From assembly GCA_963701965.1 (NCBI GenBank), contig OY969695.1, forward strand, positions 3,168,001 to 3,232,000: a stretch of DNA of 64,000 nucleotides, in the 5' to 3' direction. Source of the DNA: an uncultured Gemmatimonadales bacterium (lineage in GTDB: Bacteria; Gemmatimonadota; Gemmatimonadetes; Gemmatimonadales; Gemmatimonadaceae). The notes below the pieces were generated by a model. The model was not told the origin of the DNA. It saw only the letters and a list, made by a program, of their open reading frames with translations, and searched no databases. The position numbers and the translations under genes were made by a program. The first letter of the stretch is position 1. Every line of letters begins with the position of its first letter. Below are positions 21,921-27,854 of the stretch, in pieces.

Positions 21921-21991
21921 AAGGTGCCCAGGCCCAACATCGTGGTCCAATGAAGTTTTGTCGTGATCTATCACGTCGCGTGATCGATGAA
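21921..21991 (-). promoter_or_regulatory. susC promoter with LysR-type box (copy 1 of duplicated element)
   Basis: TTGGAC-N18-CACCTT on the minus strand; palindrome ATCACG-TCG-CGTGAT; 40/48 identical to 27807-27854. Confidence 0.75.
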
Positions 21992-22112
21992 CATCGCGCC
22001 GTCGGACCGCGTAATCGTTGTGGCGAAAGGCTTTGGTCTGACTCACATTGCACGAGCACTGCGTACGCAGTCGTAGTAACTATTCGGTCAAGGACACCAT
22101 CCGGAGGTCATC

Positions 22113-23429
22113 GTGACTCGGTACGGCTCGCTGTTGTTGGGGTGTGTGTTGCCAATGTGTGCCGCTGGCCAATCACATTCTGATCCGGTCGTGATGATCG
22201 CGATCAATGGTCTTCGACCCGGCGATCTGACGAGCGACGCGACCAAGGATTGGCACGTGCCCGTGTTGCGCGGATTGATACGCAATGGCGCGGCAGCCTC
22301 GGGTGTGCGCGGCGTGTTGCCCACGCTCACGCTGCCCAGCATGATGACGCTTGTTACCGGAACCTCGCCAGGTCATCACGGAGTCGTGAACAACGTCCAG
22401 TGTGGCGAGGAGGCGCGCGCCAATGGCGGATACTACTGGTACGCGCGCAATGTGAAGGTCGAGACCCTCTGGGAAGCGGCGCGCCGCAAAGGGCTCAAGA
22501 CGGCAAACGTTGGATGGACGTCCACCGTCGGCGCGTCGGTCGACCGCAATCTGGCGGAGGTGTGGCCCGCGACGTCCGGATCGCAGTATGCCCTGCAAGA
22601 CTCGTCGTCGACCCCGGGACTCTTAGCCCAGCTCGATCCGCGCGCGGCCAATGCCGCCGGCTCGTACCTCATGGACGATGACCGGCGCACGGTCTACGCC
22701 GAGACGCTCATGGCATCGTATCGACCCGATCTTCTCACGGTGTTCTACGAGAATGTGGACAACATGGAACACAAGACCGGCCTCGATACACCTGAGGATC
22801 GTCACGCGCTCGAGCACATCGACAGCTTGGTCGGCCGGTTGGTCTCAGCGGCGAGACGCCAACACCCCGGCGTGACGATCGTGGTGGTCTCGGATCATGG
22901 GTTCGCGTCGGCGTCCACGGACATCAATCTCATCCCGGCTTTCGCCAATGCCGGCCTGCTGTCGCTGGACCAGGGCGCGGTGAAGAGTTGGACCGCGCGG
23001 CCGTGTGGCGCCGGAGGCTCGGCCTACGTGGTGCTCGCGGACTCCACGAATGCGACGGTCAAATCTCGTGTGGCGGCGCTGCTCGAGCGGCTCCGGACCG
23101 ATCAGGCCAACGGGATCGACCGGGTCTTGGGTCGCGCAGCCATCCAGGATGTCGGAGGCTGGAAGCAAGCCGACTTCATGGTCCTGTTCCGACCCGGCTA
23201 CGTGGCGGCGCGGTCTGCCGCAGCGCCCTTGCGCGCGACGAGCCAGTATCGTGGAATGCACGGATACTGGCCCGCCGATCCTGGCATGTATGCCACCTTC
23301 ATCATCGCCGGGAGCAACGTGCCGCTCAAAGGCGATCTCGGCGTCGTCGATATGCGAAACATCGGACCGACGGTCGCCGCGCTCCTCGGCACCCGGCTTA
23401 CATCGGCGACGGGGAAGTCCTTGTTTTGA
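22113..23429 (+). CDS. Secreted nucleotide pyrophosphatase/phosphodiesterase (alkaline phosphatase superfamily)
   Basis: PTLTLPS Thr nucleophile, DxxxH, SDHG, GMHGY; signal peptide. Confidence 0.88.
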   Translation: MTRYGSLLLGCVLPMCAAGQSHSDPVVMIAINGLRPGDLTSDATKDWHVPVLRGLIRNGAAASGVRGVLPTLTLPSMMTLVTGTSPGHHGVVNNVQCGEEARANGGYYWYARNVKVETLWEAARRKGLKTANVGWTSTVGASVDRNLAEVWPATSGSQYALQDSSSTPGLLAQLDPRAANAAGSYLMDDDRRTVYAETLMASYRPDLLTVFYENVDNMEHKTGLDTPEDRHALEHIDSLVGRLVSAARRQHPGVTIVVVSDHGFASASTDINLIPAFANAGLLSLDQGAVKSWTARPCGAGGSAYVVLADSTNATVKSRVAALLERLRTDQANGIDRVLGRAAIQDVGGWKQADFMVLFRPGYVAARSAAAPLRATSQYRGMHGYWPADPGMYATFIIAGSNVPLKGDLGVVDMRNIGPTVAALLGTRLTSATGKSLF

Positions 23430-24525
23430 TGAGCCCGCGGCTGGCCAGCAACCGCCACAGCCCGAAGGTCATGAGCGGAATGATGTAGATCAGGATGAAA
23501 TCGTAGGCGAAATAGCGATAGCCTTTAGCGATCAGCTCGACCAGGCCGAATTTGGTGGCCACAAAAATCGCGAGTACCAGCATCGCCAGGGCAATCCCCA
23601 CCCTGATCTGCTTGCTGAGACCGGAGTAGAGTGACGCCACGCGTTCGTTCACGGCGTGCACGGTACCGGTGCCGCTCTCTAGCAGTGCGCAGAAGACCAT
23701 GAGCTGGAACGCGTAGTGAAAGACCGGGATGTTGAACCGTTGGAGCATGAAGTCGGTCGGCAGGGGCGACGAGCCAATCTGCGGGTAGAACGCCAGCATC
23801 GAGAGGTAGTACAAAATGCCGGGGAGCATCGACACCGGGCCGCAGAACGCGCCGGCGATGAGCGCGTCTTTGGCGCTCGTGAGATGCCGGGCGACTGGCA
23901 GGATGATGATCGCGCAGAGCAACTGGTAACCAGCGTAGGTGATGCCGTTTGACACCCAACCGGTGGCCGGCACGTGGAGCGCGAAGCTGGCGGCAATGGA
24001 GTGGCCGAATTTCGTGAGGGCCAGCGTGATGAAGATGATATAGACGGTGTAGATGAGAATCGTCACGTAGCCGAAGAGCCGTTCCACCGCCACGTTCCCG
24101 AACGCGACGATCGCCGCAATAATCACAATGAGGAGGCTGGTGCCGATGACCACTGGCCATCCGAAGAGCGCCGCACCGATTTCGCCGGCCGCGGCACCGT
24201 AGACGGACAGCACGATGATGATGAACACCAAGTAGGAGACGTCGAAGATCACCCATCCCGGGCCGAGCAAGTTCCGGAAGAACGTACGATAGTCGAAGCT
24301 CTTCGTGGCCCAGGCAAAGAGAAAGGTGACGGCACAGACGACGCTGAAGAGCGTCGCCGCGAGTCCCATCCCCAGGAGTCCACCCACCGGACCCGATGGA
24401 ATGAAGAACTCCGCGAACTCCCGGCCTGTCGCATAGCCGCCGCCGATGATGACGGCCTTGAAGGCAAGGCTCGGAAGAACCAAGCGTTGGAACGACGTCG
24501 CTTTAGTGCTGTTCGTATTGGACAC
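23398..24525 (-). CDS. YkvI-family membrane transporter
   Basis: VIIGGGYATGREFAEFF motif; about 10 hydrophobic segments. Confidence 0.85.
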   Translation of the reverse strand: MSNTNSTKATSFQRLVLPSLAFKAVIIGGGYATGREFAEFFIPSGPVGGLLGMGLAATLFSVVCAVTFLFAWATKSFDYRTFFRNLLGPGWVIFDVSYLVFIIIVLSVYGAAAGEIGAALFGWPVVIGTSLLIVIIAAIVAFGNVAVERLFGYVTILIYTVYIIFITLALTKFGHSIAASFALHVPATGWVSNGITYAGYQLLCAIIILPVARHLTSAKDALIAGAFCGPVSMLPGILYYLSMLAFYPQIGSSPLPTDFMLQRFNIPVFHYAFQLMVFCALLESGTGTVHAVNERVASLYSGLSKQIRVGIALAMLVLAIFVATKFGLVELIAKGYRYFAYDFILIYIIPLMTFGLWRLLASRGLIKTRTSPSPM

Positions 24526-26808: not shown

Positions 26809-26817
26809 TGCGTCGTC

Positions 26818-27777
26818 CTAGCGGTAAACGTGAGTCAAACCAACCTCCGGGGCGTCCAACGGCGATCCCTCCGCGAACCCGATACAATCCCTGACGGTGG
26901 CGAGCGCCGCATCGTCGATCGCCTGCAACGTGTGCGCATCGGCCAACCCGAGCGTGGTGAGCCGGTTGCCGAGACGGGTGATGGGGCAGCGCGCCTTCCA
27001 GTGCGCCAGTTCTTCATCGGAGCGCGAGGATTCATTCGGCGCCAGCGTCGAGTGCGCGGTCCAGCGATACGTCTGACACTCGATCAGGCTTGGGCCCTGC
27101 CGGCTACGCGCCCGGGCAATGGCGCGGTCCATGACCTCACCGATGGCTTCGACATCGTTCCCGTCGACCAGTTCGCCTGGAATGCCGTACGCCGCCGCCC
27201 GCCGCCACACCGACCCGCCGGCCGTCGTCTTCTCGATCGGTGAGGACTTCGCGTAGAAGTTGTTCTCACAGACGAAGATGACGGGAAGCTTCCAGATCGC
27301 GGCCAGGTTCAGCCCCTCGTGAAAGTCGCCGCGGTTCGCCGCGCCCTCGCCGAATATCGCGACCGTCACTTCGTCGGTTCGGCGAAGTTTCGAGGCGAGC
27401 GCCGAGCCCGCTCCGAATGGAATGATTGCCCCCACGATCGACGTGGTGCTCAGCACGCCCTTTGCCAGGTCACCGACGTGAAAGATCGGCATGCGTCCGC
27501 GGGTGGGACTATCGGCCGTTCCATAGAGTCCCGCCATGATCTGGCGCGGCGTGAAGCCCCGGACGAGCAACGTGCCGACGCCGCGATAATGTGGAAACAC
27601 GAAATCGGAGGGGCGCAGCTTGTAACTTGCGGCCACGCCAACGGCTTCTTGGCCTATTCCCGCATGGAAGTTGTCGAACTTCCCGGACTCGGACAGCGTG
27701 ATCGCGGCCTCCTGGAAGCGCCGCGCCAGCACCATGACCTCGAAGATCTCGAGTAACTGCTCGTCGGTGTACACCAT
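26818..27777 (-). CDS. ThDP-dependent E1 alpha-like subunit
   Basis: GQEA, HYRG, GEGAAN...CENN ThDP motif, TYRWTAHS. Confidence 0.93.
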   Translation of the reverse strand: MVYTDEQLLEIFEVMVLARRFQEAAITLSESGKFDNFHAGIGQEAVGVAASYKLRPSDFVFPHYRGVGTLLVRGFTPRQIMAGLYGTADSPTRGRMPIFHVGDLAKGVLSTTSIVGAIIPFGAGSALASKLRRTDEVTVAIFGEGAANRGDFHEGLNLAAIWKLPVIFVCENNFYAKSSPIEKTTAGGSVWRRAAAYGIPGELVDGNDVEAIGEVMDRAIARARSRQGPSLIECQTYRWTAHSTLAPNESSRSDEELAHWKARCPITRLGNRLTTLGLADAHTLQAIDDAALATVRDCIGFAEGSPLDAPEVGLTHVYR

Positions 27778-27783
27778 GCAACA

Positions 27784-27854
27784 AATGTGGCCGTGGTCTT
27801 GAGTCGGGTCCAATGAAGATTTATCGTGATCTATCAGGAAACCTTATCGATGAA
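27784..27854 (-). promoter_or_regulatory. E1 operon promoter with LysR-type box (copy 2), overlapping the LysR start codon
   Basis: TTGGAC-N18-CACATT on the minus strand; ATCA-GGAAACC-TTAT; near-identical to 21944-21991. Confidence 0.75.

Follow-up and report, generated by a model that had tools for sequence, protein, structure and literature searches.

A predicted LysR-type operator and promoter probably copied from an E1 operon to the front of susCD in a Gemmatimonadales bacterium

We analysed a 64,000-nucleotide stretch of contig OY969695.1 from an uncultured Gemmatimonadales bacterium (positions 3,168,001 to 3,232,000, forward strand; hereafter the window), in which a 48-bp element occurs twice: between lysR and a divergent operon led by a 2-oxoacid dehydrogenase E1 alpha-like gene (copy 2, 27807-27854, minus strand), and upstream of susC (copy 1, 21944-21991, minus strand). 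Judged from the sequence, the element probably serves the adjacent LysR as binding region and promoter, and was probably copied from the lysR/E1 region to susCD and to a distant DinB-family gene. A recount and a scan of both strands of the genome bore out the identity of 40 of 48 positions that the first-pass annotation had given for the pair about 5.9 kb apart; the copies stand in direct orientation, 5863 bp apart. They form the top ungapped 48-mer pair of the whole window in either orientation, the runner-up scoring 37. Across the 5.12-Mb genome, copy 1 as query gave scores of 48, 40 and 30 and otherwise at most 28 of 48, and copy 2 gave 48, 40 and 33 and otherwise at most 27. The third match, copy 3 (G000:C1:1185549-1185596), lies outside the window, about 2 Mb away, upstream of the DinB-family gene, and agrees with copy 2 at 33 and with copy 1 at 30 of 48 positions; together with its promoter hexamers it spans G000:C1:1185549-1185619 (L001:9550-9620). 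A matrix trained on copies 1 and 2 and on the copy of the metagenome contig L007 (see below), with copy 3 excluded, assigned 43 bits to copy 3, compared with 13.6 bits for the next site of the genome and a maximum of 10.7 bits in the reversed genome, so that three sites were found and no fourth. The genome-wide scan proposed in the first-pass annotation recovered both window copies and the third, which that annotation had missed. A chance repeat is ruled out by the genome-wide scans, the matrix scores and the ranking of 48-mers in the window. Copy 3 stands 50 bp before the DinB-family gene, the product of which has an apparent signal peptide, and the -35/-10 spacing is that of the other copies. 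A MacB/FtsX-type permease gene adjoining copy 3 (L001:7051-9554, minus strand) appears to be broken over several frames.

The three genome copies and the L007 copy share one layout. Read toward the target gene, all four consist of an AT(A/C)A-N7-TGAT dyad, 5 bases, a degenerate (A/G)CGA-N7-T(C/T)AT, TTGG(AC/TA), 18 bases and CAC(A/C)TT, with common half-sites, a 20-bp spacing between the predicted recognition binding site (RBS) and activation binding site (ABS), an 18-bp spacing between the -35 and -10 hexamers, and variable spacers within the dyads. At copy 2, the predicted RBS (ATCA-N7-TTAT, 27833-27847) ends 2 bp before the lysR ATG, and the predicted ABS, a degenerate dyad (27813-27827), abuts the -35 hexamer. 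The predicted promoter (27784-27813, minus strand) comprises TTGGAC (27813-27808), 18 bp and CACATT (27789-27784), which ends 6 bp before the E1-alpha ATG. With this ATG as the predicted +1, the dyads are centred at -63 and -43 and the hexamers occupy -36 to -31 and -12 to -7; relative to the predicted +1, the two dyad centres are the same in all four copies. At copy 1, the corresponding sites are 21970-21984 (RBS), 21950-21964 (ABS) and 21921-21950 (predicted promoter, minus strand; TTGGAC, 18 bp, CACCTT), located 35 bp before the susC ATG together with a purine-rich ribosome-binding stretch. Both the TTGGAC-N18-CAC(C/A)TT pair on the minus strand and the ATCA-N7-TGAT and ATCA-N7-TTAT boxes had been described in the first-pass annotation and were found as stated. 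Its further claim that mismatches concentrate in the box spacer agrees with our counts, as this 7-base stretch holds five of the eight differences between copies 1 and 2 (hypergeometric p=0.0006), and the four differences between copy 2 and the L007 copy are confined to it (p=0.0002). Copy 2 also overlaps the lysR start as claimed, with the ATG at 27850 inside the element and close homologues starting with MN at the same residue.

In promoters of LysR-type transcriptional regulators (LTTRs), the RBS is placed near -65 and the ABS near -35 in the available part of one account (PMC11602165), and the first site is the more symmetric one in that of another (PMC6441110). Centres at -63 and -43 with a more symmetric first dyad fit these positions. 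As a bare T-N11-A is found at 3.3% of all positions in the window, only the dyad together with its spacing carries weight. The assignment of the element as a predicted operator plus promoter with the layout of a standard LTTR-activated promoter is supported by the sequence pattern. As the predicted -10 hexamer is only 6 bp from the E1-alpha ATG, a leaderless transcript is likely. In the whole genome, TAnnnT peaks at -13 and -12 before the start codon (98 and 100 of 6932 candidate ATGs, compared with 12-30 at offsets -25 to -16 and -10 to -6), and the E1-alpha hexamer starts at -12 here and at -13 in L007, which independently supports the assignment of +1. Taken by itself, the roughly five-fold genome-wide enrichment points to many leaderless genes in this organism.

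The connection of the element with this particular LysR draws on L007. This contig carries an orthologous lysR-E1a-E1b-DAO-ykvI block with 75-89% protein identity and the same divergent layout, and its element is identical to copy 2 at 44 and to copy 1 at 41 of 48 positions. The block is flanked by other genes on both sides, indicating that it moves as a unit. Homologues of the flanking genes (L007:2820-3979 and 10185-11153) are located within about 21 kb and about 13 kb of the window ends in the genome (G000), which suggests a related lineage with local shuffling. Among the best 80 of 572 metagenome loci, L007 contained the sole LysR orthologue (84%), the others having 36-47% identity; related LysRs at 63-86% identity exist. 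A scan of genome contigs returned three distant LysRs (28-29% identity), and the viral contigs contained no match to the pattern. Four pairs of LysR and E1-alpha homologues share the size of their longest source contig (12583, 2572, 2567 and 141885), which hints at, but does not show, a general pairing of the two genes in this group. The element was detected in none of 300 genomes of the family, 5 of the genus and 400 of the phylum. Orthologues were likewise not found in the genomes searched for LysR (40), E1-alpha (400, phylum) or DAO (300), where for the two enzymes at most five candidates were scored per genome and several genomes are incomplete. The element therefore co-occurs with this LysR in the only two places with readable DNA. 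Upstream of the 13 other detected lysR genes of the genome, at most 22 of 48 positions matched, which rules out a generic LTTR look-alike. The earlier proposal of a shared LysR operator and promoter for the E1 operon and susCD is thus supported by the geometry of the element, by its conservation in L007 and by its restriction to this LysR, and the predicted regulon is larger than stated. The co-occurrence with LysR also speaks against a structured RNA or a site for some different regulator, both of which are extremely improbable. Copy 1 can form a small hairpin, but folding z-scores ranged from -0.34 to 0.83 over all four combinations of strand and copy, with differing structures, and the single Rfam match between 17000 and 29000 was below the gathering score and outside the element.

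Copying of the promoter to susCD is indicated by the comparison with congeners, in which close susC homologues are common (65-82% identity) and none carries the element. We aligned six other susC upstream regions (homologues at 64-82%), leaving out that of G002 because its contig is cut. The element matrix reached at most 6.5 bits at the susC homologue loci and stayed below 0 at 14 dinB homologue loci (L120-L133), compared with 69-81 bits for true copies. Four of the six regions contain a different promoter-like block with TTGACA, and of the congener-like leader only about the last 20 bases are retained in the window. Together, these observations indicate that the susC promoter was replaced in this lineage or in its source. 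The block of the congeners (L110:13230-13284, also in L111, L112 and L113) has a near-consensus TTGACA with a conserved T-rich/TCGTCGC stretch in front of it and is possibly the operator of another regulator. The susC gene itself (18871-21885) looks mosaic, with leader and first codons resembling one paralogue of G005 (86% over 51 bp) and the body resembling another (82% protein identity). We took a 12-bp match of copy 1 to the susC upstream regions of G001 and G004 as chance (E=0.067, different distance to the start).

Directly behind copy 1, a 29-codon frame (21987-22076, plus strand) begins at an ATG whose position matches the lysR start, and its sequence suggests that it is probably the decayed 5' end of a lysR gene. 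In register, its DNA agrees with the own lysR at 30 of 72 positions (shuffle p=0.004) and with the L007 lysR at 33 of 72 (p=0.0003); against all 72-mers of the genome, the values are p=0.019 and p=0.0017, respectively. The matches lie mostly at codon positions 1 and 2, and the protein-level p of about 0.003 is corrected for the choice of the end point. Copy 3 and the L007 copy have 15 of 25 spacer bases in common (p=0.0002, one of six pairs), and the remaining spacer pairs involving copy 1 or 3 gave p=0.04 to 0.66. The replaced susC promoter, the lysR-like relic and the spacer bases common to copy 3 and L007 point to probable copying of the promoter as a whole instead of a new origin in place. 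Continued use of copy 1 is best supported by its operator, which has stayed 83-85% identical while the adjacent DNA is at 33-46%. A second CACATT hexamer within the relic (22044-22049, plus strand) could be the -10 of the phosphodiesterase-family gene that follows.

In the simplest history, a tandem duplication would have reached about 90 bases into lysR, and a later deletion would have brought the copied promoter next to the susC leader. The lysR/E1 intergenic region would be the source of the copies, and the upstream regions of susCD and of the DinB-family gene the recipients. Two other histories involve the same DNA. First, copy 1 might be the remnant of a separate divergent unit of a lysR paralogue and susCD, the regulator of which decayed once the neighbouring LysR took over, without any local duplication. 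The relic is slightly nearer to the L007 lysR than to the own one (33 vs 30 of 72) and not specific to one LysR, and related LysRs exist (63-86% identity), but no intact lysR was detected in the stretches around seven close susC homologues, the operator identity of 40-41 of 48 points to this LysR lineage, and direct orientation at 5.9 kb is the trace expected from tandem duplication and deletion. We consider such a paralogous unit improbable. Second, the repeat might be a recombination or integration scar around an inserted block of 5.8 kb, with copy 1 lacking a present function. The direct repeats do flank a block (alkaline-phosphatase-superfamily gene, ykvI, DAO and E1 genes) for which no orthologue was found in congeners. 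However, lysR lies outside this block and yet travels with E1 in L007, copy 1 retains 38 of 41 non-spacer positions next to DNA with 33-46% identity, which indicates selection, no integrase or transposase was present among the genes scanned around the block, and a third copy exists 2 Mb away. A scar is accordingly very improbable.

Several observations weigh against copying of a functional LysR promoter. There is just one independent orthologous locus, L007, and linkage to susCD is not visible there. Both hexamers agree with the consensus at just 2-3 of 6 positions, a scan for consensus sigma-70 promoters between 15000 and 30000 called no site, and CAnnnT is without clear enrichment at -13 and -12 (109 and 84, compared with 37-107 elsewhere); weak hexamers are what an activator-dependent promoter would be expected to have. 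The relic signal is modest and was first spotted by eye, with p=0.019 genome-wide for the own lysR, a gapped free-end alignment missed its register (p=0.18), and another LysR of the genome fits equally well (BLOSUM score 12 vs 10; DNA 29 vs 30 of 72). The spacers of copies 1 and 2 are chance-like (8 of 25, p=0.34), as are those of copies 2 and 3 (9 of 25, p=0.13). No E2 or E3 gene is present in the cluster, so the subunits for E1 alpha/beta would have to come from elsewhere; the genome contains three further E1 pairs, and the substrate is a guess. Some of these points would suit in-place convergence, in which the sites at susCD and dinB belong to the same LysR regulon but arose by point mutation and the lysR-like frame is due to chance: spacer identity of copies 1 and 2 at the level of chance, relic p-values of 0.003-0.019, and no lysR relic behind copy 3 (p=0.63). 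Convergence would, however, not predict identical flanks (7 of 7) and linker (5 of 5), non-consensus hexamers shared between the sites at a constant 18-bp spacing, or the spacer bases common to copy 3 and L007. We therefore regard it as unlikely, and copying of the whole promoter remains our preferred explanation.

In the mechanism that we propose, a LysR tetramer would anchor on the dyad at -63 and at copy 2 would also repress lysR. Effector-bound LysR would engage the degenerate site at -43 beside the weak -35 hexamer and recruit RNA polymerase, giving rise to a leaderless E1a-E1b-DAO-ykvI message, a susCD message with a short leader and a dinB message. As the two operons are separated by a convergent gene, susCD would need a copy of its own.

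By the usual roles of these families, the presence of a likely importer next to a DAO-family oxidase and an E1 pair suggests amino-acid uptake, oxidation and oxidative decarboxylation. YkvI would take up the substrate, the DAO-family enzyme would oxidise it and E1 would decarboxylate it. The effector would probably be an amino acid, perhaps of a D- or non-standard type, or the corresponding 2-oxo acid. In the two loci that we inspected, YkvI homologues adjoin genes for DUF1611 proteins and dipeptide epimerases. In Pyrococcus, D-allo-Ile induces a YkvI-family gene according to the available text of PMC13628549, and in the window a D-serine-dehydratase/aldolase-like gene is located two genes past lysR. 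These three observations make a D- or non-standard amino acid the best guess, albeit a tentative one that may well be wrong. Matches to phosphonate pathway models (TIGR03339, TIGR03329 and PhnA) were all far below the cut-offs and leave this pathway as a distant option, and one plasmid context of the DAO protein that was inspected did not indicate a substrate. Taken to its full extent, our interpretation would be a regulon that grew within one genome through two events of whole-promoter copying. By duplication, the lysR/E1 promoter and the first ~30 lysR codons would have been brought to susCD, replacing the promoter found in congeners, and a second copy would have reached the DinB-family gene 2 Mb off. 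The decayed lysR head would then form a neutral clock beside a selected operator, and the regulon would serve an undescribed breakdown route for D- or non-standard amino acids, relying on an E1 that stands alone and on SusCD as a recruited importer. We regard this combined interpretation as an even call.

The genes around the two copies were assigned as follows. Copy 2 sits in the 72-bp gap between lysR and the minus-strand run led by E1-alpha. The LysR-type regulator predicted to bind the element (27850-28746, plus strand, 298 aa) has PF00126 and PF03466 domains and is divergent from E1-alpha. The E1 alpha-like protein (26818-27777, minus strand) matches PF00676 and PDB entries, and the E1 beta-like protein (25819-26808, minus strand) is above the cut-off of NF006667. 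The following FAD-dependent oxidoreductase of the DAO family (24503-25819, minus strand) matches PF01266, with NCBIfam matches below cut-off and no PDB relative at 1e-10. The YkvI-like membrane protein, a likely amino-acid importer (23398-24525, minus strand), was assigned by an Atlas score of 0.98 to YkvI clusters, with no Pfam or NCBIfam match. The E1 operon is separated from susCD by an alkaline-phosphatase-superfamily gene (22113-23429, plus strand; PF01663), which overlaps the 3' end of ykvI by 32 bp, is absent beside ykvI in L007 and has no homologue at 1e-20 in five congeners. In the first metal-binding motif of this superfamily, Asp is the usual residue. Here the motif reads INGLRP, and judged by this Asn the protein may be inactive or altered. 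SusC (18871-21885, minus strand), a SusC/RagA-family TonB-linked outer-membrane protein, is above the cut-off of TIGR04056. The SusD-like lipoprotein (17408-18868, minus strand) matches PF07980 weakly (E=0.004, below cut-off), and its homologues are always downstream of susC in congeners. A Na+/H+ antiporter gene (15743-17341, minus strand; TIGR00831 above cut-off) follows 66 bp downstream of susD and may be co-transcribed with susCD. Directly downstream of lysR, an alpha/beta-hydrolase gene and the D-serine-dehydratase/aldolase-like gene occupy 28413-30883 (plus strand); neither is found at this place in L007. Diverged direct repeats about 20.4 kb apart (29024-29518 and 49440-49925, 73-77% over 48-78 bp), the first of which lies in the alpha/beta-hydrolase gene, are probably paralogous coding regions.

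Neither LTTR operators nor the reuse of promoters is new, and the general impact of these findings is modest. Nevertheless, the comparison yields a predicted regulon of three sites and a consensus for the operator of a LysR that is uncharacterised. It would further connect a SusCD pair, and such pairs are usually difficult to assign, with an operon that likely serves amino-acid catabolism, which offers a direct handle on the cargo of the pair. It also provides a natural example of promoter reuse in which donor, recipient and outgroup are all visible. Value is added by the third site, by the replacement of the susC promoter and by the probable lysR relic. No description of this LysR, or of a lysR relic beside a copied promoter, was present among the top-ranked literature matches, which mostly do not include subscription papers.

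Compared with canonical LTTR divergent promoters such as those of AccR, AtzR, DntR and CatR, as far as covered by the available portions of PMC11602165, PMC8407307, PMC6441110 and PMC11739112, the lysR/E1 region shares a regulator divergent from its target, a T-N11-A dyad at about -65, a second site of lower symmetry by the -35, a conserved region of 50-60 bp and a box beside the regulator's own start. In contrast, the consensus TATCA-N7-T(T/G)AT is its own, a third site near -10 was not recognised, the target is likely leaderless, and the LysR protein does not reach the cut-off of any of the 25 top-ranking NCBIfam models listed. Clusters with YkvI, such as the BAR cluster of Pyrococcus (in the available text of PMC13628549) and the DUF1611/epimerase clusters of sphingomonads, likewise combine a YkvI-like importer with amino-acid-modifying enzymes, and the sphingomonad clusters include a TonB-dependent receptor, as here. 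They differ from the present operon, in which a DAO-family oxidase and E1 alpha/beta are placed under LysR and no racemase or DUF1611 gene occurs. Promoter capture is an established idea in the available part of PMC3590769, and putative mobile promoters, defined as similar upstream sequences (≥80% identity over ≥50 nt) before non-homologous genes of one genome, were reported in more than 4000 families, mostly pairs (Nijveen, Matus-Garcia, van Passel, PMC3575422). The element has 83% identity over 48 nt within the genome, and blastn aligned copy 1 with the L007 copy at 81% over 59 nt; these values were obtained outside the pipeline of that study. As in the published families, the downstream genes are non-paralogous (E1-alpha, SusC and DinB families) and the element is absent upstream of orthologous susC and dinB genes. 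The copies described here are older and more eroded (83% over 48 bp, compared with an average of 92% and a minimum of 50 nt), but their donor and their regulator can be named, one of them is accompanied by what is likely a relic of the regulator gene, and there are three copies.

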